Part shown: in pieces, positions 2-59,087 of the stretch | How positions within the stretch are numbered: position 1 is the first letter of the stretch | Layout: every line of letters starts with the position of its first letter | NCBI GenBank assembly: GCA_040377305.1 | Contig: JBEIPA010000001.1 | Location: 96,001 to 160,000, forward strand | Length of the DNA stretch: 64,000 nucleotides | DNA from: Flavobacteriales bacterium | Lineage (GTDB): Bacteria; Bacteroidota; Bacteroidia; Palsa-965 | Direction: 5' to 3' | Position numbers and translations under genes: made by a program | The notes under the pieces: generated by a model | Seen by the model: only the letters and a program-made list of their open reading frames with translations | What the model was told of the DNA's origin: nothing | Databases searched by the model: none

Positions 2-1948
2 TGGATTCAAAAATTCACGTATCTGATTCTTCCGCCCGCGCTTGCATTCCCTCTTTTTCCGATTGTTGATTACAAGTCCTTTCTGAGAAATCATCATCCG
101 CAAGATTCTTCGGTGATAAAAACCGGATTGACAAGAATCGCAGCAGGATTGATATTCATGATGTCGTTTCGCATTCTGTATCTCTACTTCATTCCGGGTT
201 ATGTTGAAGTACACGATGCATTAAGCGTTTTCACTTACACAATTTGTAATTACCTCTACATCCTCAACGTTTTTGGTGTGATGTGGATTGCAGTCGGGTA
301 TCTCGGAATATTGGGGTTTGACTTGCCTCCCGTTTTCAATTACGTCTTTCTGATCGACAATTTTAGAGACATCTGGAGACGCATTAATGTATACTGGCGC
401 GATTTCATGGTGAAACTCGTTTACTATCCGCTTTACTTTAACCTTAGGAAGAAAACGAAAGCCGCGATTTTAATTACGTCGCTAACAACGCTCACCATAT
501 CAGCAATGCTGCATGGATGGCAATGGTTTTGGTTGCAGGGAACATTTGTTTTGCACGCGCCGGGTATCATTTTCTGGTTCGTGATCGGACTCGTGATTTC
601 AATTAATCTCGCGATGCAAAATCCGATTGGGCAAGCACCTAAAACATTGAGTCCGGCAATTCGTGCGCTAAGGATCACAGGAATGTTTCTGTTCATGTGC
701 ATCATGTGGTCGTTATGGAATAGTTCGTCGATTGATGAATGGATCCACCTGCTCTCCTACTACACCATCGGTACACCAATGATGTGGATTATCATCACTG
801 CTATTCTTTTCGGAATTTTTCTGTTACACTTTATCATTCAACGTTTGCCGGAAAAACCTGCCGGTCACCACATTCTCAATAAGGCGTATCATCCAGCGGC
901 AATACTTACCGTTTGTGCATTGATGCTGGCTCCGCTGCTTCCCAACATCTCTGAGAAAATTCCGGGGATTACCGGAGAGTTCCTCGCCTCAGTTTCGAAA
1001 GCGCAATTGAGTGATGCCGATCAAAGTGCGGCTACGGAAAACTACTACAATCGTATGCTTGCGAGCGATGGAATGGGATCTCGGCCGTGGGAAGTACACA
1101 CACCTGGTCGTGACGCACAATCGGGACTGGATGATGCGTGTGTGCGCAGTGAAAATCTGCTCGTCCGTGAATTGATTCCGAGTAAAGTGACTGTGATCAA
1201 CGGATGGACAATTACAACGAACAGTTTTGGGATGCGTGATGATGAATATGCACTTGAGAAGCCGGAGAGCACATACCGTATTGCAATTTTGGGTGCATCA
1301 TACGAAATGGGATCTGGCGTTGCACAAGACAGCACATTCGAAGCGTTGTTGGAGAAAATGCTGAATGATTCGCTCTCACCAAAAAACATTGAAGTGTTGA
1401 ATTTTGCAGTTGGAGGCTATCACTTGCCACAACTGGTTTGGGTTGCAGAAAATAAGTTGCCGCAGTTTCAACCAGACCTTGTTCTGTGTTTTGTCCATCC
1501 TGCAGATGCCGCGCGTACAAGCGACTATATGGCCAACATGGTGAGAAATGGAATTGATCTGCATTATCCTGAATTGTACCAGATCAGAAAGGAGTCGGGT
1601 GCAGAACAGCACATGGAGCAGAAAGTGCTGGTGAATAAGTTTTATCCGTTCACCGGGCGAATCACCGAGTGGTCGCTGGGTACAATTTATGCGACAAGTA
1701 AATCCATGAACGCGGAATTTGGCGTTGTATATCTTCCTTCGCTACAAGGGGCTGATGATTCGAAGTACTATGCCGGAATTGCAACGAAGCCAACTTTGTT
1801 TTTCAATCTAAGCGGGATTTACGGAAGCAATCCATCAAACTACGAATTGCCAGGCGATCCTACTCACCCGAACGCCGAGGCCCACCACAAGATTGCAGCA
1901 GAACTCGCGCGTCAACTCGCTCCGATCATCAAAGGTCAAAACCCATAA
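2..1948 (+). CDS. MBOAT-family membrane O-acyltransferase (AlgI/DltB-like) fused to a C-terminal SGNH/GDSL domain; 5' partial
   Basis: Frame is open from base 2 (WIQKFTYLILPPALAFPLFPIVDY...). MBOAT-like motifs FNYVFLIDNFRDIWRRINVYWRDFMVKLVYYPL and AMLHG plus many TM segments. C-terminal part has TNSFGMRD, ILGASYEMG, NFAVGGY and DPTHPN (SGNH blocks I, II, V). Confidence 0.85.
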   Translation, partial: WIQKFTYLILPPALAFPLFPIVDYKSFLRNHHPQDSSVIKTGLTRIAAGLIFMMSFRILYLYFIPGYVEVHDALSVFTYTICNYLYILNVFGVMWIAVGYLGILGFDLPPVFNYVFLIDNFRDIWRRINVYWRDFMVKLVYYPLYFNLRKKTKAAILITSLTTLTISAMLHGWQWFWLQGTFVLHAPGIIFWFVIGLVISINLAMQNPIGQAPKTLSPAIRALRITGMFLFMCIMWSLWNSSSIDEWIHLLSYYTIGTPMMWIIITAILFGIFLLHFIIQRLPEKPAGHHILNKAYHPAAILTVCALMLAPLLPNISEKIPGITGEFLASVSKAQLSDADQSAATENYYNRMLASDGMGSRPWEVHTPGRDAQSGLDDACVRSENLLVRELIPSKVTVINGWTITTNSFGMRDDEYALEKPESTYRIAILGASYEMGSGVAQDSTFEALLEKMLNDSLSPKNIEVLNFAVGGYHLPQLVWVAENKLPQFQPDLVLCFVHPADAARTSDYMANMVRNGIDLHYPELYQIRKESGAEQHMEQKVLVNKFYPFTGRITEWSLGTIYATSKSMNAEFGVVYLPSLQGADDSKYYAGIATKPTLFFNLSGIYGSNPSNYELPGDPTHPNAEAHHKIAAELARQLAPIIKGQNP

Positions 1949-1984
1949 AATCCCTATCTTTCAGCAACAGGAATCAATCAATCT

Positions 1985-2230
1985 ATGTCTGCAGAAATTA
2001 AATCAGAAGTCCGAACATTTCTTGATGCAAGTCTTTCGGGCGGGGCTTCCGCTATACAAGACGACACCAAACTCATCAGCTCGCGATTGCTTGACTCCAT
2101 CCTTGCTTTGCGACTCGTGACACATCTGGAAGCAAAATTCAATATTGAGTTTGCCGCACATGAAGTAACAGCAGACAATCTGGAGTCCATTAACCGGATT
2201 TCAGAATTCGTTTCGTCCAAAATGAAATAG
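1985..2230 (+). CDS. Stand-alone acyl/peptidyl carrier protein
   Basis: 81 aa acidic protein with LLDSILALRLVTHLEAKFNIEF phosphopantetheine-Ser motif; next to an adenylation enzyme. Confidence 0.9.
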   Translation: MSAEIKSEVRTFLDASLSGGASAIQDDTKLISSRLLDSILALRLVTHLEAKFNIEFAAHEVTADNLESINRISEFVSSKMK

Positions 2231-2236
2231 TTTCCT

Positions 2237-3721
2237 TTGAGCGTAGAAAATCAATCTCACCTCAATCGAATTGCACTTGTTGATTCGCAAGGCAAGTCGA
2301 TGACGTTTGGTGCATTGAAAACTTCCCGCGAAATGTTTGCTTCGATCCTTTTCAGATTTCAGGTTGGTGGCGGTTGTCGGGTAGCCATACTTCTCGAAAA
2401 ATCTTTGGCTAGTGCAATCGCTATATATACATGCGTGGATATTTCAGCTGCTTACATTCCAGTCGATGTACATCTTCCAAAATCAAGGATTGATGATACT
2501 CTTGCTGATTGTAATCCACACGTGGTGGTTCACAACCAACCTGGTCTCTTTCCTGATAATGAATCTCACGCTTGCAGAATTCCGGGTCTGGAAGAAACTT
2601 TCATCACGGTGTTGCTCGCCCCCAACTATCGTGAAGTTGAAAGCAAGCAAGCAATGCCCAATTTTTTCACCGAATACGTTTCATATGTATTATATACTTC
2701 CGGATCAACCGGGATTCCCAAAGGTGTTGTTGTGCCGTTCGATGCCACCAAGGCGTTTGTAATGTGGGCCAGTAAAAGTTTTGACATTGTTGAAACAGAT
2801 CAAATTGCCTCCATTGCACCGTTTCACTTCGATTTATCTGTATTGGACCTCTTCGTCGCACGATACAAAAAGGCGACACTTCACTTATTCAGTCCGGAGC
2901 AAGTAAGAAATCCACGGCTGATGAGCGAGGAATTGTCCAAGCGAAAGATCAGTACGATATACGCCACACCAACTTTCTACGGTGCACTGTTAGAATTTGG
3001 AAAAATCGAGAACCAGGATTGGTCTTATCTGCGCTCTGTCCTTTTCGCTGGAGAAGTCTTTCCGGTCAAACAACTTCACGGTCTGATGTCGATCTGGAAC
3101 AATGTCAAATTTTACAATCTCTACGGTCCAACAGAAACGAATGTTTGCACCTTCACGGAAATTCATCGGGATAATGACCGTACAGAGCCGTACGCGATTG
3201 GTAAGGTATGCGCAGGACATGAAATTGAAATTACTGAGCAAGGAGAATTACTTGTTGGCGGTCTTCATGTTGCGAAAAACTATCTGAACAGATCGGAGTT
3301 GACTGCCGAGAAATTTTTTACCGTTGGTAATACTCGTTGGTTTCGCACAGGAGATAAAGTTGAAGTTGATGGAACCGGACATCTCCTCTACAAAGGTCGA
3401 CTTGACAGAATGGTAAAACGACGCGGCTATAGAATTGAGCCTGGAGAAATTGAAAGTGCGCTGCACAAACTTGATGGTGTCACTGGAGCTGTAGTCGTTG
3501 AACACCGCGAAAGTCATTCTGTATTATTGGCTGCCGTTGTCACAACCGATGGCAGCCGAAATTTTGATATTGTACAATTAAAATCCGAATTATTTCAAGT
3601 TCTACCTGACTATATGCTCCCGGATTCGGTCATTACAGTTAATGAATTTCCAAAGACCAGCTCAGGAAAAATCGATTATTTGAAGGTGCAGCAGGATGTC
3701 GTATCTTCATTACATAAATGA
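2237..3721 (+). CDS. Stand-alone amino-acid adenylation enzyme, probably L-proline--carrier protein ligase (PltF/RedM/AnaC-like)
   Basis: Core motifs YTSGSTGIPKG, APFHFDLS, NLYGPTETNVC, FRTGD, GRLDRMVKRRGYRIE and PKTSSGKID. Specificity residues read by eye: DLLYLALVCK. TTG start. Confidence 0.85.
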   Translation: MSVENQSHLNRIALVDSQGKSMTFGALKTSREMFASILFRFQVGGGCRVAILLEKSLASAIAIYTCVDISAAYIPVDVHLPKSRIDDTLADCNPHVVVHNQPGLFPDNESHACRIPGLEETFITVLLAPNYREVESKQAMPNFFTEYVSYVLYTSGSTGIPKGVVVPFDATKAFVMWASKSFDIVETDQIASIAPFHFDLSVLDLFVARYKKATLHLFSPEQVRNPRLMSEELSKRKISTIYATPTFYGALLEFGKIENQDWSYLRSVLFAGEVFPVKQLHGLMSIWNNVKFYNLYGPTETNVCTFTEIHRDNDRTEPYAIGKVCAGHEIEITEQGELLVGGLHVAKNYLNRSELTAEKFFTVGNTRWFRTGDKVEVDGTGHLLYKGRLDRMVKRRGYRIEPGEIESALHKLDGVTGAVVVEHRESHSVLLAAVVTTDGSRNFDIVQLKSELFQVLPDYMLPDSVITVNEFPKTSSGKIDYLKVQQDVVSSLHK

Positions 3722-4812
3722 ATCCTTCTGCTCTAGATATTCGTCAGGCTGCGATTGATCACTCGCTTCAATTGAACTCGCACGATTCGTTTTCAGCGAA
3801 ATGGCAGTCGGCCTCTGGACTATTTTTTGCGGGTATCACCTTACCAATTCCAGGGATGACCACGCGTTTGAGTGCGGTCGATTGTGCAAACATTCTTTTT
3901 GAGCTCGGAAGAAATTCCAAAGACGGTGGTTTCAACTTTTCGCTTGCAGCACATTTGTTCGCGGCTGTAATTCCACTAGGAGGTCACGGGACACATTCCG
4001 TTCACCACGAAGCGAGAGAACGTATTTCCAATGGAGCAATTGCCGGGAATGCGATGACAGAAAGTTCCTCCGGAAGCGATGCATTCAGGATGAAAACCAC
4101 TGCCACGCGTAACGGAAAAGATTTCATTCTCAACGGAAGCAAAGTTTATGTAACCAACGGTCCCATTGCTGACTATTTCGTTGCATACGCAATCACCGAT
4201 GCGGAGAAAGGTTTTTTCGGTGGTGTGTCGTGTTTTCTAATTGATAAACTAAAGCACAATGTAATAGCTGGTCCGCCGATTGAAAAAACAAGTTTAAAAT
4301 CATCTCCGATGTGTGAACTGTTCTTTGACAATTGTGTAATTGAAGAGAAATATCTCATTGGTAAAGAAGGTGCGGGCGCCATGATATTTCTCGAATCCAT
4401 GGATTGGGAGCGCGCTTGTATTGCAGCGATGCATGCAGGAACGATTTCGAGATTGTGTAATGAAGCCGGCGCTTTCGTAAAGACAAGAATCCGTGGTGAA
4501 AAAGCTTTGAGTGAATTTCAAGGTGTGCAATTTAAGATTGCAGACATTGCGGTGCTTGGTGAAACATCCCGACTGATGGCCAATCGCGCGGCTGAAAAAG
4601 TTGATCAGAGAAACGGAACACTTGCGGCTGCACAGGCGAAAATTCTTGCAAGCGAATCTTTGATGCAAGCTGCAACGTTAGCTGCAACAGTAATGGGCGG
4701 AAGCGGTATCACCAACAAAAATGTAGTTAACGTACTTGTCGATGCACAAGCCGCGCTGATTTACTCCGGGCCGAATGATGTGCTGAGAGAATTGATTGCA
4801 TCACAATTGTAA
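3718..4812 (+). CDS. Acyl-CoA dehydrogenase family protein, likely L-prolyl-carrier-protein dehydrogenase (PltE/RedW/AnaB-like)
   Basis: AMTESSSGSDA, LNGSKVYVTNGP, MDWERAC, FQGVQFKIAD and IYSG in place of the MCAD YEG. ATGA overlap with the adenylation gene. Confidence 0.8.
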   Translation: MNPSALDIRQAAIDHSLQLNSHDSFSAKWQSASGLFFAGITLPIPGMTTRLSAVDCANILFELGRNSKDGGFNFSLAAHLFAAVIPLGGHGTHSVHHEARERISNGAIAGNAMTESSSGSDAFRMKTTATRNGKDFILNGSKVYVTNGPIADYFVAYAITDAEKGFFGGVSCFLIDKLKHNVIAGPPIEKTSLKSSPMCELFFDNCVIEEKYLIGKEGAGAMIFLESMDWERACIAAMHAGTISRLCNEAGAFVKTRIRGEKALSEFQGVQFKIADIAVLGETSRLMANRAAEKVDQRNGTLAAAQAKILASESLMQAATLAATVMGGSGITNKNVVNVLVDAQAALIYSGPNDVLRELIASQL

Positions 4813-7086: not shown

Positions 7087-8106
7087 CTAAGGATTTAGGG
7101 AGAGATAATGCTTTACTCTTAACTCTGCGTTCTCACGAATATTCATGTAGAACAAATTCACATCGCTAACGTGGTAGTTATTTCCGAGATGGTAGAAACC
7201 TTTCTTCAAAGAAGGATCGGTGAACGTAATCCACAACAAGCTGCCGTGAATTTTCGTACGGAGTAAATTCTTTTCCGTTTTCTGCCAATCGAAACGCACA
7301 GCACCGAAGTGCAATTTACTTTCCGCAACACCCGCATCTTGTGTCCATGTAAGCGGATTCACACAAGCTGATCCGCGATAACGTGTATAAGGACCCGTGG
7401 TATCTTGTCTCCACGCAACTGTATTCCATGTTACGAAACAACCGATCTGCGATGCACTATCGCCCACCGGAATATCTTTGTACCGATTTTTCTGTGTATC
7501 GAAACCAATGGGATACGACGCAACGAGTTGATTCAACAAAGGTTTTCCGGTGAAGAAATCGTCCATCAGTCGCGCTACATGATATGCACCTTGACTATGT
7601 CCGGCGAGAATAATTGGTCGGCCGTGATTGTAATTCGCGAGATAGTATTCGAAAGATTTTTTAATGTCGGCATACGCTGTGTCGAGTGCTCGCTCGCCTT
7701 CTACTTCACCCTTCGTGAAGCTTCTTAGAATCGCCTGACGATACCGCGGTGCATAGACTTTCGCGGAGGAATTAAACGGAGTGGCCTGATGCATAACGCA
7801 TGCGTCGCACTTTTCGTTCAACTTTTTATCGTCGAGATTTCCGTTCCATGGTCCACCCGCTAAATACACGGTTGGATGCACGTAGAACACATCGACCTGC
7901 GCTGCGAGTTGGTTTTCTTTTGTTGGGCAATCCGGCGGAATGGTATCAGCGATATCATGTCGCGTCGGCAGTGCAATCCAGAAAGATTCAGAGGAGTAGT
8001 CGGGTCGAGTGATCGGTTTGGATTTTTTTCCGAGTGAAGAGACGGAGAATGCCGGAGCGAGGATTGAGAGGGAGAGGAAGGAAAGGGAGAGGAGGAGGCG
8101 GAGCAT
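7087..8106 (-). CDS. DUF3089-family alpha/beta hydrolase, secreted
   Basis: Signal peptide; DVFYVHPT, YAPRYRQA, ILAGHSQG (GxSxG), CVNPLTW and YHVSD motifs. Confidence 0.85.
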   Translation of the reverse strand: MLRLLLSLSFLSLSILAPAFSVSSLGKKSKPITRPDYSSESFWIALPTRHDIADTIPPDCPTKENQLAAQVDVFYVHPTVYLAGGPWNGNLDDKKLNEKCDACVMHQATPFNSSAKVYAPRYRQAILRSFTKGEVEGERALDTAYADIKKSFEYYLANYNHGRPIILAGHSQGAYHVARLMDDFFTGKPLLNQLVASYPIGFDTQKNRYKDIPVGDSASQIGCFVTWNTVAWRQDTTGPYTRYRGSACVNPLTWTQDAGVAESKLHFGAVRFDWQKTEKNLLRTKIHGSLLWITFTDPSLKKGFYHLGNNYHVSDVNLFYMNIRENAELRVKHYLSLNP

Positions 8107-51567: not shown

Positions 51568-53076
51568 CTATTGCGTATTGCTCATTGGATCGCGCTTGCG
51601 CGAAAGTGCAAACATCACAAAAGCCAACGTTATCAACGATACAAAAAACGTAAGCATGCTGCTGTTTGCTTCCGATGTTTGTTCAGGTTCAAAATCCCCG
51701 AACGGAATGATGCTTCCCTGTTTCGAGCTCTGGTGTTTTTTGTCGAGATACTGATCGAACTCTTTCGGATAATCGTAATGCGTGGTGATATCGCGACCAG
51801 TGAGCCACTGATACGTGTATAATTCATTCCAACGACGCTTACCCAGTTCCACCAGATACTCTTGTCCTTTTTCGCAGGTGTAATCCGTACTGTACGGCGG
51901 GTTCGTGAGAATATATCGTCCCTGGAATCGCACCTTATTTGCAGTTTCCTGAAATAACAAATCCTGTGGAAAATGTTCGCGATCATACGTGAGGTGCAGA
52001 CGTGTGAAGTACACGAAGCCTTCGTACGTTTTAGCTTGCGTGTGATAGTCCGTGCTTTTTAGTTCAAGCCAATCTACACCCGCATCTTTCAGATCAGTTA
52101 CAACAGGTGGATCACCAACGCACGGATCACAGAATTGATTTTGCGTTGGAGAAACATCCCAACCGTATTCGAGGAAAACGGTATTCTTTCCCTCGCGACT
52201 CCATGCTTTGTTGTAGAGATCACGATAAAATTCACCGAACTCGTTGCGAACAAACAGCGGCACTTTAAAGTCGGTTGGAATAAGCGAAGTGCGATAGTTT
52301 GTTGTTTCGATGCGTCCAACTTTGGAGTACATGTACACAACAAGATCCTGTACGCCGTTTGCGTTTGCCATTCCCAGGCGAATCGGCAACATGAATTTTG
52401 GTGAGGTGTATGTAATCTGTAGTGGCTTCAATGGCACAGCTCCAGCCGCGGTGTAATTTTCGAGATTCACTTTCGCCACGAAAAACTTCATGTTCGTTTT
52501 GATGTACGGATCGAGAACTTCTTTTGCACCGACCGGCATTTTATAACCGTTGTCAATGAGCCATTCTTCTAATCCACCAGATTCAAGTGCAGAAAGAATA
52601 AGAATATCATATTCACCAACGGTGTATTTCGCTTCCACGGTTACGCCGTAGGATTTTTCCTCCATCGGTGCCGCATTTCCATCGCTGTAACCATAAGCTG
52701 CAGATCTGGTTTTCTTAGCCCCGTAGTGTGGTTTGTATTTCGGAGGAGTGTAACATGGATTCTGATCGTAGTACTCCACCAGACGTGGTGAAGAATACAA
52801 ATCAAGTTTATCGAACAACGCGCGCTCTGCAACTTTGATATCGCCTTCCTGCAATACCACCGGAACCGGAACGACCATTGCAAAATCCTTCACGTCGCCT
52901 TCAAAATCACTCGACATGGTTACGGTTTGCTTATCACCATTCTTCGCAATGATAACCTGCGATGTTTTGTTGAATAGTTTGATGTCTGCTTTTGCAACAT
53001 AAAATCCGCAGAAGCTGTAGCCGATGTTGCTTGTGAACACTATAGCTGCGAGAGTGAGGATGAGCGTCTTTTTCAT
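51568..53076 (-). CDS. DUF2330-family protein, paralog 4 (most divergent)
   Basis: Signal peptide; FCGFYVAKAD, DFAMVVPVP, PRLVEYYD.NPC, FMLPIRLG, CDPC and FQGRY; C-terminal TM followed by RKR. Confidence 0.85.
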   Translation of the reverse strand: MKKTLILTLAAIVFTSNIGYSFCGFYVAKADIKLFNKTSQVIIAKNGDKQTVTMSSDFEGDVKDFAMVVPVPVVLQEGDIKVAERALFDKLDLYSSPRLVEYYDQNPCYTPPKYKPHYGAKKTRSAAYGYSDGNAAPMEEKSYGVTVEAKYTVGEYDILILSALESGGLEEWLIDNGYKMPVGAKEVLDPYIKTNMKFFVAKVNLENYTAAGAVPLKPLQITYTSPKFMLPIRLGMANANGVQDLVVYMYSKVGRIETTNYRTSLIPTDFKVPLFVRNEFGEFYRDLYNKAWSREGKNTVFLEYGWDVSPTQNQFCDPCVGDPPVVTDLKDAGVDWLELKSTDYHTQAKTYEGFVYFTRLHLTYDREHFPQDLLFQETANKVRFQGRYILTNPPYSTDYTCEKGQEYLVELGKRRWNELYTYQWLTGRDITTHYDYPKEFDQYLDKKHQSSKQGSIIPFGDFEPEQTSEANSSMLTFFVSLITLAFVMFALSRKRDPMSNTQ

Positions 53077-53181
53077 TCGGCGGTCGGGTTTATGATATGA
53101 TGATAGAATGATCGGATGATAGGATAGGTCGAGTCAAATATTCACTACACTCTATCATTCAATCATCCCACAATCTTATCA
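53077..53181. repeat. Octamer-repeat hairpin between DUF2330 genes
   Basis: GATATGAT GATAGAAT GATCGGAT GATAGGAT, loop, then ACTCTATC ATTCAATC ATCCCACA ATCTTATC A. Confidence 0.8.
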
Positions 53182-54681
53182 CTGATTCGGTACTGTTTCT
53201 TTTAGCTTGCGCTTACGCGAAAGAGCAAACATCACTCCTGCAAATGCAAGTACTGAAGTGAAAAATGTAATCATATTGCTTTCCGATTTCGTGGCATGCT
53301 CGGGTGTGAAGTTCTCCAAATCAACCAAGGCTCCCTGTTTCTTCGGAGCGCCGCCGGTTAGAAACTGATCGTATTCTTTCGGATAATCTGCATGCGATGT
53401 GATATCGCGACCCGTGAGCCACTGATAGGTGTACAATTCATTCCAGCGACGTTTCCCGAGATCCTTGATGTAAGTCTGTCCTTCTGCACACGACAAATCT
53501 CCGCTGGCCGGATGCGTGATGATGTAGCGGCCCTGAAACTTTTCTTTGTTCGCCGTTTCCTGAAACAACAAATCCTGCGGAAAGTGCGCACGATCATATT
53601 TCAAATGCATGCGCGTGAAGAAAACATTACCTGCATACGTTCTTGCTTGTGTGTGGTAGTCCTGAGTTGCCAGTGTAAGCCAATCTACTCCTGCTTCTTT
53701 CAGATCAGTTACCATTGGAGGATCGCCCACACACGGATCACAAAACTGGGTTTGATTCGGAGAAACTTCCCACGCGTATTCGAGGAACACGGTGTTCTTT
53801 CCTTCGCGTGTCCAGGCTTTGTCGTAGAGATCCCGATAAAATTCGCCGAATTCATTCTGCACAAACAGTGGTACTTTGAAATCGGTTGGAATGAGTGAAG
53901 TGCGATAATTGGTTGTTTCGATTCTTCCGATTTTCGAATACATGTAAATCACGAGATCCTGTACACCATTTGCGTTTGCCATCCCCAGTCGGATTGGCAA
54001 CATAAATTTTGGCGATGTGTAAGTAATTTGAAGCGGATCGAGATCAACCGAACCTTTATTGGCGAACTTCTCGAGATTCACTTTACACACAAAAAACTTC
54101 ATGTTCGTTTTGATGTACGGATCCAAAACTTCTTTTGCACCAACAGGCATTTTGTAACCGTTGGCGTTGAGCCACGTTTCAAGTCCTCCCGATTCTTTCG
54201 CCGACAAAATCAAAATGTCATACGTTCCGATCTGGTACTGCGCTTCAACCGTAACTCCGAGCGTATCTGCAGCATAACCAAAGTTCATCATCGGTGCTGC
54301 ATCGAAAGAAACTTCACTCAGAAGTACTCCTTCATTGTAATACTCAGGTTCCACGTAACAGGGAGTCTGATCGTAATAAGAAACCAATCGTGGAGATGAA
54401 TAATCTTCCAGTTTTCCGAAGATGCTTTGATTCACCGTTCGGATATCTTTCTCCTCCAGCACAACCGGAACTGGAACGACCATGGCAAAGTCTTTCACCT
54501 CTCCTTCAAAATCACTCGACATCGTAACGGTTTGCTTGTCGCCATTCTTTGCTATAATTACCTGTGAAGTCTTGTTGAACAATTTCACATCAGCTTTCGC
54601 CACGTAAAATCCGCAGAAACTGTAGCCTATGTTGCTGGTGAACACTATGGCAGCTAGAGTAAGTATGAGTACTTTCTTCAT
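53179..54681 (-). CDS. DUF2330-family protein, paralog 3
   Basis: Same motifs as the other copies; 500 aa. Confidence 0.85.
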   Translation of the reverse strand: MKKVLILTLAAIVFTSNIGYSFCGFYVAKADVKLFNKTSQVIIAKNGDKQTVTMSSDFEGEVKDFAMVVPVPVVLEEKDIRTVNQSIFGKLEDYSSPRLVSYYDQTPCYVEPEYYNEGVLLSEVSFDAAPMMNFGYAADTLGVTVEAQYQIGTYDILILSAKESGGLETWLNANGYKMPVGAKEVLDPYIKTNMKFFVCKVNLEKFANKGSVDLDPLQITYTSPKFMLPIRLGMANANGVQDLVIYMYSKIGRIETTNYRTSLIPTDFKVPLFVQNEFGEFYRDLYDKAWTREGKNTVFLEYAWEVSPNQTQFCDPCVGDPPMVTDLKEAGVDWLTLATQDYHTQARTYAGNVFFTRMHLKYDRAHFPQDLLFQETANKEKFQGRYIITHPASGDLSCAEGQTYIKDLGKRRWNELYTYQWLTGRDITSHADYPKEYDQFLTGGAPKKQGALVDLENFTPEHATKSESNMITFFTSVLAFAGVMFALSRKRKLKETVPNQ

Positions 54682-54783
54682 GACGTAAGTTTATGATAGG
54701 ATGATAGAATGATCGGATGATTGGATAGGTCGGGTGATCGTACTAACTCCATCCTATCATTCAATCATCTGATAATCCCATCA
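54682..54783. repeat. Octamer-repeat hairpin between DUF2330 genes
   Basis: GATAGGAT GATAGAAT GATCGGAT GATTGGAT, loop, then ATCCTATC ATTCAATC ATCTGATA ATCCCATC A. Confidence 0.8.
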
Positions 54784-56283
54784 TGAATTCGGCACTGTTT
54801 GTTCCTTTGATTTCCGCTTACGCGATAAAGCAAACATTACTCCGGCAAACGCAAGAACAGAAGTAAAGAAACTAATCATGTTGCTTTCCGATTTCGTTGC
54901 ATGTTCCGGTATGAATTCCTCAGGTGTCAAGAATGAACCTTGTTTCTTCGCCGCACCACCCGTTAAATACCGATCGAACTCCTTCGGATAATCGTAATGC
55001 GCAGTAATATCGCGACCAGTTAGCCACTGATAGGTATAGAGTTCATTCCAACGGCGCTTTCCAAGATCCTTGATATACGTTTGCCCTTCTGCACAAGAAA
55101 GATCTCCGCTTGCCGGATAGGTGATAATGTAACGACCCTGAAACTTTTCCTTGTTCGCTGTTTCCTGGAATAACAAATCCTGCGGGAAGTGTGCGCGATC
55201 ATACGTGAGGTGCAAACGCGTGAAGAACACATTACCTGCGTATGTTCTCGCTTGCGTGTGGTAATCCTGAGTCGCCAGTGTAAGCCAATCTACTCCGGCT
55301 TCTTTCAGATCAGTTACCATCGGTGGATCACCAACGCACGGATCGCAGAACTGTGTTTGATTCGGAGAAACTTCCCATGCGTATTCGAGAAACACGGTGT
55401 TCTTTCCTTCCCGTCCCCAAGCTTTATTGTAGAGATCGCGATAGAACACACCGAACTCATCTTTCGCAAACAGAGGCACTTTGAAATCGGTTGGGATTAA
55501 CGAGGTGCGATAATTAGTCGTCTCGATGCGACCGATCTTTGAATACATGTAGATGATCAAATCCTGAACCCCATTGGCATTCGCCATTCCAAGTCGGATC
55601 GGCAACATGAATTTCGGCGACGTGTAAGTAATTTGAAGTGGATCGAGATCAACAGAACCTTTGTTCGCAAATTTTTCAAGATTCACTTTGCAAACAAAGA
55701 ACTTCATATTGGTCTTGATGTACGGATCGAGAACTTCCTTAGCACCAACCGGCATTTTGTATCCGTTGTCGTTGAGCCACGTTTCGAGTCCGCCCGATTC
55801 CTTTGCTGACAAGATGAGAATATCGTACGTGCCGATTTGGTATTGAGCTTCAATAGTTACACCTAAACTTTGAGTTGTAGTCACATTCGCGACACTCATT
55901 CTCATCATTTCCGGAGCTGCAGCAACCATATCGTAATCGTAATCGTCCCGCTCAACGTAACAAGGTGTTTGATCGTAATACGATACCAATCGTGGAGCGG
56001 AATAATCTTCCAGTTTTCCGAAGATGCTTTGATTCACTGTGCGAATATCTTTCTCTTCAAGAACTACAGGCACGGGAACAACCATCGCGAAATCTTTTAC
56101 TTCGCCTTCGAAGTCGCTCGACATGGTTACTGTTTGCTTATCGCCATTCTTCGCGATAATCACCTGAGACGTTTTGTTGAAGAGCTTTACATCCGATTTC
56201 GCAACGTAGAAACCACAGAAGCTGTAGCCCATATTGCTGGTGAATAGGATAGCGGCGAGGGTGACGATAAGTATTTTTTTCAT
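54781..56283 (-). CDS. DUF2330-family protein, paralog 2
   Basis: Same motifs as the other copies; 500 aa. Confidence 0.85.
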   Translation of the reverse strand: MKKILIVTLAAILFTSNMGYSFCGFYVAKSDVKLFNKTSQVIIAKNGDKQTVTMSSDFEGEVKDFAMVVPVPVVLEEKDIRTVNQSIFGKLEDYSAPRLVSYYDQTPCYVERDDYDYDMVAAAPEMMRMSVANVTTTQSLGVTIEAQYQIGTYDILILSAKESGGLETWLNDNGYKMPVGAKEVLDPYIKTNMKFFVCKVNLEKFANKGSVDLDPLQITYTSPKFMLPIRLGMANANGVQDLIIYMYSKIGRIETTNYRTSLIPTDFKVPLFAKDEFGVFYRDLYNKAWGREGKNTVFLEYAWEVSPNQTQFCDPCVGDPPMVTDLKEAGVDWLTLATQDYHTQARTYAGNVFFTRLHLTYDRAHFPQDLLFQETANKEKFQGRYIITYPASGDLSCAEGQTYIKDLGKRRWNELYTYQWLTGRDITAHYDYPKEFDRYLTGGAAKKQGSFLTPEEFIPEHATKSESNMISFFTSVLAFAGVMFALSRKRKSKEQTVPNS

Positions 56284-56388
56284 GACACTGTAAGTTGATG
56301 ATGGAATGATAGAATTATTGGATGATAGGATGGAACGAAGAACAACATAAACTACATCCTATCATTTAATCATCTGAGCATCCTATCA
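56284..56388. repeat. Octamer-repeat hairpin between DUF2330 genes
   Basis: GATGGAAT GATAGAAT TATTGGAT GATAGGAT, loop, then ATCCTATC ATTTAATC ATCTGAGC ATCCTATC A. Confidence 0.8.
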
Positions 56389-57894
56389 TGTTTGTGAGGT
56401 AGTTTGAGACTTTGCCTTCCGTTTTCGCGATAACGCAAACATCACTCCTGCAAATGCAAGTACAGAAGTGAAGAACGTGATCATATTGCCTTCAGACTTT
56501 GTTGCGTGTTCCGGCACGAAAGACTCGATTGACATGAACGAACCTTGTTTGGTTTTTCCACCGGTTGATTTGATGTGCTGATCATATTCCTTCGGATAGT
56601 CGTAGTGCGCAGTAATGTCGCGACCGGTAAGCCACTGATACGTGTAAAGCTCGTTCCAACGGCGCTTACCAAGCTCCTTCACATAAGTCTGTCCCTTTTC
56701 GCACGAGAAATCTCCGCTTGCCGGATGAGTAATGATGTAACGACCCTGAAATTTTTCTTTGTTCGCTGTTTCCTGGAACAACAAATCCTGCGGGAAGTGC
56801 GCGCGATCATACGTAAGATGCATACGTGTAAAGAACACATTGCCTGCGTACGTTCTCGCTTGTGTATGATAATCCTGGCTCGCAAGTTCAAGCCAATCAA
56901 CGCCAGCTTCTTTCAGGTCAGTTACCATTGGAGGATCGCCAACGCACGGATCACAAAACTGCGTTTGATTCGGAGAAACTTCCCACGCATACTCGAGGAA
57001 TACGGTATTCTTTCCTTCGCGGCCCCAAGCTTTGTTGTACAGGTCGCGGTAGAATTCGCCAAACTCATTCTGAACAAACAACGGAACTTTAAAATCGGTT
57101 GGAATCAAAGACGTGCGATAGTTTGTTGTTTCGATACGACCGATCTTCGAATACATGTAAATGATCAAATCCTGAACTCCATTCGCATTTGCCATTCCGA
57201 GTCGAATCGGCAACATGAACTTCGGTGATGCATACGTAATCTGAAGTGGATCGAGATCAACGGAACCTTTGTTTGCGAATTTTTCCAGATTCACTTTACA
57301 CACGAAGAATTTCATGTTCGTTTTGATGTACGGATCGAGCACTTCTTTAGCGCCCACCGGCATTTTGTATCCGTTGTCGTTGAGCCACATCTCTAATCCG
57401 CCCGATTCTTTCGCTGATAAAATCAGGATGTCATAAGTTCCAATTTGGTATTGCGCTTCTACAGTTACCTGGTAGTCGTCAGCCAACTCCTTGCTTACGC
57501 TTTTCATTTCCATTCTGTCGATAGACGCTCCCGCAGCCATAGGATAGTTGTAATACTCCGGTTCTACGTAACAGGGGTTCTCATCGTAATAAGAAACGAG
57601 TCGCGGGGCTGAGTAGTCATCAAGTTTGGCGAAGATGCTCGCTTGCACAGTTCGTATGTCTTTCTCTTCGAGAACTACCGGAACAGGAACGACCATTGCA
57701 AAATCCTTCACGTCGCCCTCGAAGTCGCTCGACATGGTAACGGTTTGCTTCTCGCCATTCTTCGCGATAATAACCTGCGATGATTTATTGAAAAGTTTCA
57801 CGTCTGCTTTTGCAACATAAAATCCGCAGAAGCTATAGCCCATGTTGCTGGTGAACACAATGGCTGCGAGAGTGAGTATCAGTACTTTTTTCAT
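56386..57894 (-). CDS. DUF2330-family protein, paralog 1
   Basis: Same motifs as the other copies; 502 aa. Confidence 0.85.
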   Translation of the reverse strand: MKKVLILTLAAIVFTSNMGYSFCGFYVAKADVKLFNKSSQVIIAKNGEKQTVTMSSDFEGDVKDFAMVVPVPVVLEEKDIRTVQASIFAKLDDYSAPRLVSYYDENPCYVEPEYYNYPMAAGASIDRMEMKSVSKELADDYQVTVEAQYQIGTYDILILSAKESGGLEMWLNDNGYKMPVGAKEVLDPYIKTNMKFFVCKVNLEKFANKGSVDLDPLQITYASPKFMLPIRLGMANANGVQDLIIYMYSKIGRIETTNYRTSLIPTDFKVPLFVQNEFGEFYRDLYNKAWGREGKNTVFLEYAWEVSPNQTQFCDPCVGDPPMVTDLKEAGVDWLELASQDYHTQARTYAGNVFFTRMHLTYDRAHFPQDLLFQETANKEKFQGRYIITHPASGDFSCEKGQTYVKELGKRRWNELYTYQWLTGRDITAHYDYPKEYDQHIKSTGGKTKQGSFMSIESFVPEHATKSEGNMITFFTSVLAFAGVMFALSRKRKAKSQTTSQT

Positions 57895-58015: not shown

Positions 58016-58879
58016 TTATTTAGACCAGGAGAATTTATCTCCTTTGAAAATTTTATCGAGCACAGGAACGAGTGGTGACAAGAAGAACAATGCCCACACT
58101 GGAGGCGCAGAATACACCCACCATTTCGTTGCCATGTAGTATGCCAGAATGCCAACTCCAACAGCCCATATCAATCGTGCTTTTTGTGAAGCAGGAGTCT
58201 GAACCGGATCAGTGATCATGAAGAAGGTGAAGAGCAGCAACGAACCGTTCGTTAATTGATGCGTAAAGAAATCCATCGGCCAACCGAGGTAAAGAATGTT
58301 GCGCGCAAACATTAACCCGAGGAACGTAAGCAAGAATGCAAACGCTGTATCGAGACGTTTAACGCGCAACAGCACAACCAAACCTGTAAGGCCTACAACA
58401 AACAACAACAAACCGTCACTTCCCCACTGTCCAGGAGAAATCCATGAGTCACCTGTAAGCAGGACTGTTACACAGATTCCAAAGTTTGTTGGATTGAAAA
58501 TATGTTTGCCATTATATTTTAAAAAGAACTTGCTTCCGATGGAGAGCACTGCACACAACACGAATGTCCACACACTGTTTGCCTGCATCATCAAACAGAT
58601 ACTCATTGCACTTACGAGTGCACTCTTGAGTCCTGTCCAATCTTTCGTCTTGAACTGTATCCAAAGTGCCTGCACTGCGAGACAAGAAAGAATCACGATG
58701 TTCACCCGCATGATTGGGATCGTCCAATCCAACACGAAAATCCCGTACAACAGGAAAGACAGTTGGAACAGAATCTGATAATGGCGGGCATCACTTCGAA
58801 ACCATTCGAGAACGTTAGTTACGGGCTTAATCGCCGTTTTTAGGGCGTTTTGGGCGACGGGTAGAGATTGAGTTTCCAT
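58016..58879 (-). CDS. RnfD/NqrB-family (UnbU-like) integral membrane protein, stand-alone
   Basis: DARHYQI, SKFFL...KHIFNPTNFG, WISPGQWG and FFMITDPVQTP; about 9-10 TM segments. Start METQSL at 58879; the upstream extension is translated heptamer repeat. Confidence 0.8.
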   Translation of the reverse strand: METQSLPVAQNALKTAIKPVTNVLEWFRSDARHYQILFQLSFLLYGIFVLDWTIPIMRVNIVILSCLAVQALWIQFKTKDWTGLKSALVSAMSICLMMQANSVWTFVLCAVLSIGSKFFLKYNGKHIFNPTNFGICVTVLLTGDSWISPGQWGSDGLLLFVVGLTGLVVLLRVKRLDTAFAFLLTFLGLMFARNILYLGWPMDFFTHQLTNGSLLLFTFFMITDPVQTPASQKARLIWAVGVGILAYYMATKWWVYSAPPVWALFFLSPLVPVLDKIFKGDKFSWSK

Positions 58880-59087
58880 TGGATTAGTATTAATTCCGCA
58901 AGTAGGATGCGGGGCTTTAGCTGATTCCATAAAAGGTACAAAAAAAGATGGGAGTCGGGAGATGGGAGACGGGAGTGAAAAGCTGCAGGGCCAACGCGAT
59001 TGCATTGGAATCATTGATTTCCAAATTCATGGCGAATAATTAGATGCCGGATATGCGTCTTCCTACTCCCGTCTCCGATCTCCTAAC

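Follow-up and report, generated by a model that had tools for sequence, protein, structure and literature searches.

A conserved gene cassette joining a proline-type carrier module to a fused MBOAT-SGNH protein: a candidate pathway for pyrrole-2-carboxylate esters on bacterial surface glycans

Charge, biofilm properties, host recognition and the susceptibility to phages and antibiotics are controlled by the acyl groups (acetyl and D-alanyl, for example) that decorate surface glycans. A membrane acyltransferase can be fused to the SGNH domain, as in AT3-SGNH proteins of the OatA type. In the known pyrrole-forming modules of natural-product pathways, the pyrrolyl-S-carrier passes to a ketosynthase (KS), condensation (C) domain, thioesterase or acyltransferase and ends in a soluble secondary metabolite; to our knowledge, thiotemplated pyrrole synthesis has so far been found only in secondary metabolism. 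According to the available part of one source, the known bacterial MBOAT/SGNH pairs are separate proteins, among which only the Dlt system uses a carrier protein (PMC12148441). The same part describes an FXYXXF "acyl shuttle", a motif whose tyrosine takes the acyl group over from the MBOAT and passes it to the SGNH protein; the motif sits on DltX in Dlt and at the C-terminus of PatA-type MBOATs (PMC12148441). Here we analyze a four-gene cassette at the left end of a 64,000-nt stretch of a Flavobacteriales bacterium (contig JBEIPA010000001.1, positions 96,001–160,000; hereafter the window), in which genes for a fused MBOAT-SGNH protein, a carrier protein, an adenylation (A) enzyme and an acyl-CoA dehydrogenase (ACAD)-family flavoprotein follow one another.

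We read this cassette as a Dlt-like, carrier-dependent pathway that would esterify an extracytoplasmic glycan with pyrrole-2-carboxylate, a proposal about chemistry drawn from sequences, predicted folds and gene context. The tight spacing reported in a first-pass annotation of the window was borne out on reading the sequence: the four open reading frames (ORFs) are separated by gaps of 36 and 6 nt, and the last two genes overlap by an ATGA at positions 3718–3721. It is also correct that no KS or condensation domain lies downstream, where a small lipoprotein, a WG-repeat protein, a DUF3089 protein and a UvrD-like helicase are encoded. Two ketoacyl synthase III (KAS III) genes were found about 9 kb upstream of the cassette, outside the window. 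In the whole genome, which is 99.99% complete, neither a condensation domain nor a second strong A domain was detected, and thus no nonribosomal peptide synthetase (NRPS) accounts for the carrier, A enzyme and dehydrogenase (the triad).

The A enzyme is predicted to be an L-proline--[carrier protein] ligase. It matched AMP-binding (4.1e-54) and AMP-binding_C in Pfam, while its NCBIfam scores (274.7 bits with TIGR01733, 251–258 bits with the DltA models) are all under the cut-offs. The motifs FDLSVL, TIYATP, VLFAGE and NLYGPTETNVC, from which its substrate code had been derived by eye, are present and give DLLYLALVCK at the positions that were used. The ten positions were assigned after GrsA by the textbook scheme, and the column-wise comparison of pockets is independent of this numbering. 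When the pocket segment (residues 190–310) was compared with the Protein Data Bank (PDB), the top match was PltF (6o6e; 81.6 bits), which is identical at all nine aligned pocket positions ahead of the A10 lysine (D-L-L-Y-L-A-L-V-C). The pocket of Serratia PigI reads D-L-F-Y-I-A-W-V-C. In Bacillus subtilis DltA (3e7w) it reads D-L-M-T-M-C-T-V-A, so that six of nine positions differ and the cysteine of the DltA motif FCGE, named in the first-pass annotation and present in the alignment, stands in place of the alanine of FAGE; the departure from the two solved DltAs is likewise at 6/9 positions.

The same preference was revealed at the level of the family. With a profile of 30 cassette A enzymes, PltF, an L-proline--[L-prolyl-carrier protein] ligase, scored 460 bits and every other single A domain at most 378 bits (TycA 378, PigI 378, DltA 339–351), and thus PltF exceeds DltA by about 110 bits. 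LgrA reached 693 bits as the sum of two A domains, which makes the ranking of whole PDB proteins misleading. The 53 aligned pockets comprise the query, 49 cassette enzymes and three A enzymes taken from annotated pyrrole clusters. The code is DLLYLALVCK in 23 of them and DLFYLALVCK in 13, the latter including the A enzyme of a bipyrrole-type cluster of Methylocystis; the proline-type code DL(L/F)Y.ALVCK expected beforehand is therefore kept across cassette enzymes. One outlier, DMFFVGPLCK at locus L039, comes from a weak tblastn match and is probably not orthologous. As literal strings, the pocket codes had no match in the papers searched. An A-domain tree, built without an outgroup and after dropping seven near-identical Mesorhizobium rows, gave 75% support for a split between cassette and natural-product enzymes and is not used as evidence.

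The carrier protein matched PP-binding with 24.4 bits (Pfam cut-off 20.8), and its Asp37-Ser38 pair is invariant in 33/33 cassette carriers; Ser38 (codon 2096–2098, motif LDSI) is the predicted phosphopantetheine site. A single phosphopantetheinyl transferase (PPTase) of the ACPS family is encoded in the genome (L113:19282–19896). All best NCBIfam matches of the carrier are under their cut-offs. The top one pointed to ornithine lipids ("ACP_for_OlsHI", 58 bits against a cut-off of 130), a lead that was rejected: OlsH, placed by the available part of its source in a GH3-like ornithine-lipid pathway of planctomycetes, is without a counterpart here.

The fourth gene encodes a predicted prolyl-S-carrier dehydrogenase. 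Its best NCBIfam scores were obtained with the PigA (297.6 bits) and RedW (260.1 bits) models, the next ACAD family reaching 153 bits. In the PDB its top matches were 6cxt (230.5 bits), PigA 5zw0 (202.9) and AnaB 4irn (166.6), with generic ACADs at 152.5 bits or below; 6CXT is Bmp3 bound to its carrier Bmp1, according to the available part of its description (PMC8857579). The RedW model was rejected as a sole discriminator, as it also gives a generic ACAD of the same genome 254 bits, and for this reason we relied on the active-site signature and a tree. The motifs MDWER and LIYSGP were both found as previously noted. In the query, serine stands where the canonical YEG motif has its catalytic glutamate, and (Y/F)SG is present in 31/33 cassette enzymes and in six of six reference dehydrogenases of annotated pyrrole clusters. 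The query, these references and 33/33 cassette enzymes all have the (M)xWE(R/K) glutamate. The three generic ACADs of the same genome carry YEG or FEG and are without the WE(R/K) glutamate. In a quick maximum-likelihood tree (IQ-TREE), cassette and natural-product enzymes were split from generic ACADs with a support of 100, and 32 of the 34 cassette dehydrogenases formed one clade of their own (99). The enzyme thus groups with Bmp3, PigA and AnaB, which are all prolyl-carrier dehydrogenases.

To characterize the distribution of the cassette, one genome per prokaryote species was scanned with the MBOAT-SGNH alignment; at least 568 stretches were confirmed and 79 loci were kept. Genes for the A enzyme and the dehydrogenase were both found within a flank of up to 10 kb in 45/79 loci, so the expectation that this synteny would recur in other genomes holds across phyla. 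In 29 of these 45 the order is MBOAT-SGNH, (carrier), A enzyme, dehydrogenase, with the A gene starting less than 1 kb after the MBOAT-SGNH gene; as a rule, the carrier gene directly follows the latter. A part of the set was present in 11 loci and none of it in 23, of which 19 lie on contigs that are short on one side. Four of five genomes without a flanking triad hold a cassette-type A enzyme elsewhere (524–609 bits), that of Phaeodactylibacter xiamenensis being encoded on the same contig a short way outside the flank. The exceptional loci L065, L066 and L037 may export plain prolyl groups or draw on another donor.

Cassette-bearing loci come from about nine phyla; the hosts include Bacteroidota, Rhodothermota, Ignavibacteriota, Calditrichota, Gemmatimonadota, Pseudomonadota (alpha, beta and gamma), Acidobacteriota, Binatota, Chloroflexota and a deltaproteobacterial metagenome-assembled genome. 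Within the genus of the window, the MBOAT-SGNH gene was found in 20/24 other genomes (one of the 20, G012, is unpublished), and in 0/16 genomes from other families of the class. Since the family also occurs in culturable strains (Mesorhizobium spp., among them M. delmotii STM 462; Neolewinella aurantiaca SSH13, which also has the halogenase; Pseudothauera rhizosphaerae CC-YHH848; and P. xiamenensis), the idea is directly testable.

The nearest relatives of the A enzyme and dehydrogenase on plasmids were studied by tblastn against PLSDB. The best homologues turned out to be encoded side by side within clusters of pyrrole type: a prodigiosin locus of Pseudoalteromonas xiamenensis, in which PigD and RedY are annotated; bipyrrole-like loci of Thioclava and Methylocystis containing an acyl carrier protein (ACP), a PigH-like aminotransferase, an AMP ligase, a KS, a PPTase and an ACAD; loci of Mycetohabitans and Streptomyces microflavus with KAS III-like, ACP, A and ACAD genes; and an ACAD/A/ACP locus of Brasilonema. 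It should be mentioned that in Mycetohabitans rhizoxinica (L093:5668–9635) and S. microflavus (L094:5712–9719) a His-less KAS III-like protein is encoded ahead of the ACP, A enzyme and ACAD. This arrangement is a different four-gene off-loading of the same predicted pyrrolyl-S-carrier.

An FAD-dependent halogenase gene was revealed in 17/79 loci. It directly follows the dehydrogenase gene in 10 of them (L012, L014, L019, L022, L023, L026, L033, L035, L036 and L076) and occupies the same position in four further loci of the same genus. The best PDB matches of these halogenases, at about 143–159 bits, are CndH, Mpy16, PltA, CmlS, ChlB4 and Bmp2, which we take to be the subclass acting on carrier-bound substrates, including three pyrrolyl-S-carrier halogenases (Mpy16, PltA and Bmp2). 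Such a gene behind the dehydrogenase in relatives points to an aromatic pyrrole as the carrier-bound intermediate and is the strongest contextual argument for it. A gene for an S-adenosylmethionine (SAM)-dependent methyltransferase often follows the halogenase (six loci), and in Dokdonia (L085:12402–14456) and at L057 a KedN5-like B12 radical-SAM C-methyltransferase gene stands between the carrier and A genes. Lineages with these enzymes would export halogenated or methylated pyrrole groups. The locus of the window's own genome contains no halogenase. A copy elsewhere in this genome (G000:C58:32898–34220) was rejected as a part of the system: 39–49% identical to the cassette-linked enzymes, and 39% to those of the same genus, which are 75–80% identical to one another, it is a diverged paralogue among housekeeping genes, located between a ComM-like Mg-chelatase gene and the ATP synthase epsilon/beta genes, about 9 kb from the PPTase gene.

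The MBOAT-SGNH protein (808 aa) was compared with 40 relatives found by a word-indexed search, nearly all of them without a name; JGI labels two AlgI or DltB. An AlphaFold2 (AF2) model built on the alignment of relatives had a pLDDT of 85.7 and a pTM of 0.80, with residues 507–534 as the sole long low-confidence stretch. In Foldseek searches of the PDB, the N-terminal part matched HHAT (E 1.8e-7), DltB (8jem_A, E 2.5e-7, TMt 0.63; 6bug_C), PORCN, LPCAT3 and MBOAT7, all with a probability of 1.00. The C-terminal part matched SGNH esterases (EstL5, TesA and others) with TMt values of 0.7–0.78. The protein can be divided into an MBOAT domain (about residues 1–500), a flexible linker (507–534) and an SGNH domain (about 540–808). 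The GDSL score of the query at its C-terminus is sub-threshold (16.9 against 23.6), and GDSL_2 was matched in 27/40 relatives. Thus, both folds named in the first-pass annotation were recovered in one fused polypeptide, while the MBOAT part is not recognizable from sequence. An exhaustive profile search gave 1,868 cluster representatives at E ≤ 1e-30, the best 150 of which are all full-length. Among eight longer members scanned, three carry CBM_4_9 after the SGNH domain and two a second SGNH domain; P0170, P0175, P0126 and P0041 have one or both of these additions.

Candidate catalytic residues are conserved in all three parts. Arg144, Asp183, Trp285, Arg287, Asn289, His331, Gln334, Tyr508, Tyr509, Ser593 and Asn627 are invariant in 68/68 full-length members, and His782 is present in 67/68; Asn289 and His331 are also invariant in the 40 first-found relatives. 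In MBOAT enzymes an Asn or Asp stands about 40 residues ahead of the catalytic His, a hallmark that Asn289 and His331 fit. Ser593, Asn627 and His782 are consistent with blocks I, III and V of SGNH enzymes. The invariant Tyr-Tyr pair lies in the linker, within the family motif (G)YY(E)x(L), and is a candidate acyl-shuttle tyrosine by analogy with the Dlt and PatA systems.

Next we analyzed the surroundings of the cassette. A Pfam scan of ORFs at 12 loci showed that most are embedded in polysaccharide loci, with genes for Wzx-type flippases, GT4 and GT2 glycosyltransferases, Bac_transf initiating sugar transferases, Wzy_C, WecG, UDP-sugar dehydrogenases and epimerases, pyruvyl and carbamoyl transferases, several sulfotransferases and a gene for the synthesis of 3'-phosphoadenosine-5'-phosphosulfate; at L050 and L062 the neighbours are mostly unrelated to polysaccharide. 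Together with the CBM_4_9 modules, this neighbourhood points to a glycan acceptor. Of the acceptors proposed earlier (lipopolysaccharide, exopolysaccharide or a glycoprotein), a glycan, that is a sulfated polysaccharide or glycolipid, is thus more likely and a protein less so.

The genes left of the window, which had been singled out for inspection, form a conserved Bacteroidota cluster with a KAS III pair and no NRPS. In the block bounded by the ribosomal-protein operon (Table 1), the order is KAS III, a 78-aa carrier-like ORF (L001:3502–3738, no family match), KAS III, SDR, ArnC-like GT2, PseH-like GNAT, sulfotransferase, two paralogous unknowns (~310 aa, opposite strand) and two more sulfotransferases. 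The best NCBIfam match of the GT2 protein is the polyprenyl-phosphate sugar transferase ArnC (157 bits, under the cut-off). The whole order is kept in genomes of the same genus and in more distant Bacteroidota. This block probably assembles a sulfated, N-acylated sugar, either the acceptor itself or a neighbour of it. The Cys-His-Asn triad is intact in both KAS III proteins, which are only 22–25% identical to the His-less KAS-like proteins of Mycetohabitans and S. microflavus. Since the two enzymes have canonical triads and a carrier to themselves, their product is probably another acyl group, which we read as a separate short 3-hydroxyacyl group on that carrier, and their role as off-loaders of the pyrrolyl group was judged unlikely.

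The following route can be hypothesized. The A enzyme would form prolyl-AMP and thioesterify Ser38 of the holo-carrier, as predicted from the pocket identity with PltF, and the dehydrogenase would carry out an FAD-dependent four-electron oxidation to the pyrrolyl-S-carrier, as predicted from its family and signature. By analogy, the carrier would dock at the cytoplasmic face of the MBOAT domain. Following the Dlt and PatAB models, His331 would catalyse acyl transfer to Tyr508 or Tyr509 on the extracytoplasmic linker, the linker would pass the group on to Ser593, and a glycan hydroxyl would finally be esterified by the SGNH domain. The glycan at this locus is probably the sulfated, N-acylated sugar assembled by the upstream KAS III, ACP, SDR, GT2, GNAT and sulfotransferase genes, and in many relatives a PltA-like halogenase would first chlorinate or brominate the pyrrolyl-S-carrier. 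The interpretation offered in the first-pass annotation is thus supported by the pocket, the grouping of the dehydrogenase, the synteny and the absence of an NRPS; all computational checks suggested there had an outcome in its favour. To the whole chain, from proline over pyrrole-2-carboxyl-S-carrier and the MBOAT-SGNH protein to a periplasmic or surface glycan, we give slightly better than even chances.

The positions of the cassette genes, of the predicted catalytic residues and of other features are collected in Table 1. The small lipoprotein gene, which begins 2 nt past the dehydrogenase stop codon, is possibly co-transcribed with the cassette. Its product is without a Pfam or NCBIfam match, and tblastn found no counterpart in 14 related Bacteroidota loci, so it is not a conserved cassette member. 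A homologue of the adjacent WG-repeat lipoprotein was found downstream of the cassette in three examined loci of the same genus (L105–L107). Far from the cassette, four tandem paralogues with DUF2330 adjoin an NQR2/RnfD-family gene.

Table 1. Features of the cassette, its surroundings and relatives (positions refer to the window unless a locus or contig is named; G000 is the genome of the window)
Feature	Position	Strand	Remarks
Fused MBOAT-SGNH acyltransferase	2..1948	+	5'-open in the window, which holds the C-terminal 648 of 808 residues; start 478 nt left of the window, full span G000:C52:95522-97948; TAA stop, 36-nt gap
Type II carrier protein, 81 aa	1985..2230	+	PP-binding (Pfam); ATG start, TAG stop, 6-nt gap
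Stand-alone A enzyme, 494 aa	2237..3721	+	AMP-binding, AMP-binding_C; TTG start
ACAD-family flavoprotein, 364 aa	3718..4812	+	Acyl-CoA_dh_1, Acyl-CoA_dh_M
Small predicted lipoprotein (MKKLLFALIIVFVSC...), 122 aa	4814..5182	+	ORF
Predicted MBOAT catalytic pair	386..514	+	Asn289 (386-388) to His331 (512-514); invariant in 68/68
Linker pair Tyr508-Tyr509	1043..1048	+	Invariant in 68/68; in the low-pLDDT linker
SGNH catalytic residues (predicted)	1298..1867	+	Ser593 (1298-1300, GAS), Asn627, His782 (1865-1867, DPTHPN)
WG-repeat lipoprotein, 581 aa	5193-6938		11 WG-containing beta repeats
DUF3089 protein	7087-8106		Divergent, opposite strand
Four tandem DUF2330 paralogues, 500-502 aa each	51568-57894	-	All with DUF2330
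NQR2/RnfD-family gene	58016-59014		Adjoins the DUF2330 array
Upstream Bacteroidota block	L001:2466-11519 = G000:C52:86466-95519		Left of the window; bounded by ribosomal-protein operon
Halogenase examples in relatives	L075:12432-13817, L085:17118-18425, L012:19503-20792		
Own-genome halogenase copy	L113:8845-10227	-	G000:C58:32898-34220

Several observations weigh against the proposed pathway. The equivalog cut-offs of PigA (500), RedW (650) and DltA are not reached, so that the A enzyme and dehydrogenase are not orthologues of characterized enzymes; moreover, the dehydrogenase signature is common to two- and four-electron enzymes, so that pyrrole and pyrroline are not separable by sequence. 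The 808-aa protein gave no Pfam match at E ≤ 0.01, including MBOAT and MBOAT_2, only 9/40 relatives gave weak MBOAT_2 matches (best E 0.0074), and the family profile retrieved weak SGNH matches and no MBOAT among PDB sequences; because of this, the MBOAT assignment is based on the fold. The linker agrees with FXYXXF in the tyrosine and the last hydrophobic position (+3) only, the first Phe being absent, and given this partial match the shuttle role of Tyr508/509 is something we infer. The block V aspartate of the SGNH domain, Asp779 here, is Trp in 55/68 members. Some MBOAT-SGNH genes have no triad nearby, L065 and L066 contain carrier and A genes with no dehydrogenase in the flank, and G045 has an MBOAT-SGNH gene and no cassette-type A enzyme (best match 211 bits). 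Finally, this locus is without a polymerase or export gene. The hand-over from carrier to MBOAT (a carrier- as opposed to a CoA-bound donor) and the identity of the acceptor are the weakest links.

These points leave room for other explanations. In one of them the pathway is the same, with the dehydrogenase stopping at the two-electron step like AnaB or being absent in some loci, and dehydroprolyl (pyrroline-carboxyl) or prolyl groups are exported. The rank of AnaB as third-best PDB match, the shared signature and the two loci without a dehydrogenase are all compatible with this version; the query is nevertheless closer to the pyrrole-forming Bmp3 and PigA, the PigA and RedW models score highest, and a halogenase of the class acting on an aromatic pyrrolyl-S-carrier follows the dehydrogenase in many relatives, which makes the version unlikely. 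The main competitor assumes that the triad and the MBOAT-SGNH gene are neighbours and not partners: the pyrrolyl-S-carrier would enter a cytoplasmic small-molecule or lipid route, for example as a KAS III starter, and the MBOAT-SGNH protein, like PatA/B and AlgI/J, would use acetyl-CoA to O-acetylate a glycan. Consumption by KAS III is suggested by the two KAS III genes of the conserved Bacteroidota cluster and by the KAS III-like gene directly ahead of the carrier, A and dehydrogenase genes in Mycetohabitans and S. microflavus. The MBOAT-SGNH genes without a triad would fit it as well, and in the available part of the source the non-Dlt MBOAT/SGNH systems use acyl-CoA (PMC12148441). On the other hand, the cassette is kept without KAS III in Pseudomonadota, Gemmatimonadota, Ignavibacteriota and other phyla, the KAS III genes flank a carrier of their own and diverge from the His-less proteins as described above, and in most loci the carrier gene immediately follows the MBOAT-SGNH gene. 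We consider this explanation quite unlikely.

It is also conceivable that the MBOAT-SGNH protein is an exporter-hydrolase: it would bring the pyrrolyl group across the membrane, and its SGNH domain would set (halo)pyrrole-2-carboxylate free in the medium or periplasm, to serve as a signal or as the precursor of an antibiotic. The nearest SGNH structures are indeed esterases and thioesterases (TesA, EstL5), the triad aspartate is poorly conserved, and the neighbouring genes for halogenases, methyltransferases and radical-SAM enzymes are reminiscent of tailoring in natural-product pathways; yet most loci examined are embedded in polysaccharide clusters, CBM_4_9 follows the SGNH domain in some members, and the characterized bacterial MBOAT/SGNH pairs are all transferases in the available part of the source (PMC12148441). 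A hydrolase is thus very unlikely in our opinion. Ordinary Gram-negative D-alanylation of the Dlt type is hardly credible and was already disfavoured. The scores of the DltA models, a plasmid homologue annotated as D-alanine ligase and the JGI names of two family members (DltB or AlgI) speak for it, but these scores are far under the cut-offs of 476 and 559.85 (251.3 bits for the latter), the pocket differs at six positions with Ala for the DltA Cys, PltF outscores DltA with the family profile, and Dlt systems are without a dehydrogenase.

If the glycan pathway proposed here is correct, it would represent a new class of glycan modification, the carrier-dependent MBOAT/SGNH acylation of the envelope with an acyl group of natural-product type, and the second carrier-protein-fed MBOAT pathway after Dlt. 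MBOATs beyond DltB would accept carrier-bound donors, an acyl-tyrosine shuttle could be built into a fused MBOAT-SGNH protein, and thiotemplated pyrrole synthesis would gain a structural role. A heteroaromatic, sometimes halogenated polysaccharide ester would be chemically unprecedented for the cell envelope. Our search of the literature outside subscription journals and supplements brought up neither an MBOAT supplied by a prolyl- or pyrrolyl-carrier nor pyrrole-2-carboxylate on a bacterial glycan. In the broadest form of the hypothesis, pyrrole-2-carboxylate esters, which many lineages would halogenate or methylate, are placed on sulfated extracellular polysaccharides or on glycolipids in at least nine bacterial phyla, by means of an antibiotic-type proline-to-pyrrole carrier module coupled to a fused MBOAT-SGNH protein with a built-in tyrosine shuttle; in our view this form is evenly poised between right and wrong.

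Comparison with known systems shows that the cassette shares features with several of them. The AlmEFG system, which adds glycine to the lipid A of Vibrio cholerae, is likewise a Gram-negative envelope modification, and its A enzyme and carrier resemble DltA and DltC; the transferase, AlmG, is from another family, and the system is without a dehydrogenase, MBOAT and SGNH protein. The pyrrole modules PltF/PltL/PltE (with PltA), PigI/PigG/PigA, RedM/RedO/RedW, Bmp1/Bmp3 with possibly Bmp4 (and with Bmp2) and AnaC/AnaD/AnaB resemble the cassette in their stand-alone proline-type A enzyme, type II carrier and ACAD-like dehydrogenase with the same signature, and a halogenase like PltA, Mpy16 or Bmp2 is often present in its relatives. 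They differ in that the only conserved partner here is the membrane MBOAT-SGNH protein, that no protein of the cassette is an equivalog of a characterized one, and that almost all cassette dehydrogenases form their own clade.

On the side of the transferases, PatA/PatB and AlgI/AlgJ/AlgF also bring an acyl group across the membrane to a glycan via an acyl-Tyr and then an acyl-Ser of the SGNH protein, as described in the available part of the source (PMC12148441). These systems use acetyl-CoA, without a carrier protein, whereas the MBOAT and SGNH parts are fused here and encoded beside a carrier-loading module. The closest parallel is DltABCD/DltX of Firmicutes: an A enzyme loads a small carrier, the acyl group leaves this carrier and crosses the membrane by way of an MBOAT, and an envelope polymer then receives it from an SGNH protein. 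The likeness extends to the acyl-Tyr shuttle on DltX, again as far as the available part of the source goes (PMC12148441), and DltB is among the best structural matches of the protein studied here. Unlike in Dlt, the acyl group is predicted to be a proline-derived pyrrole-2-carboxyl and not D-Ala, an extra flavin dehydrogenase is present, the MBOAT and SGNH domains are fused with the candidate Tyr-Tyr pair in the linker and not on a DltX microprotein, and the hosts are Gram-negative, with a sulfated polysaccharide as the likely acceptor. Thus, because the DltA equivalog and pocket comparisons both fail, the cassette is best regarded as a system that would work like Dlt and is not a member of it.

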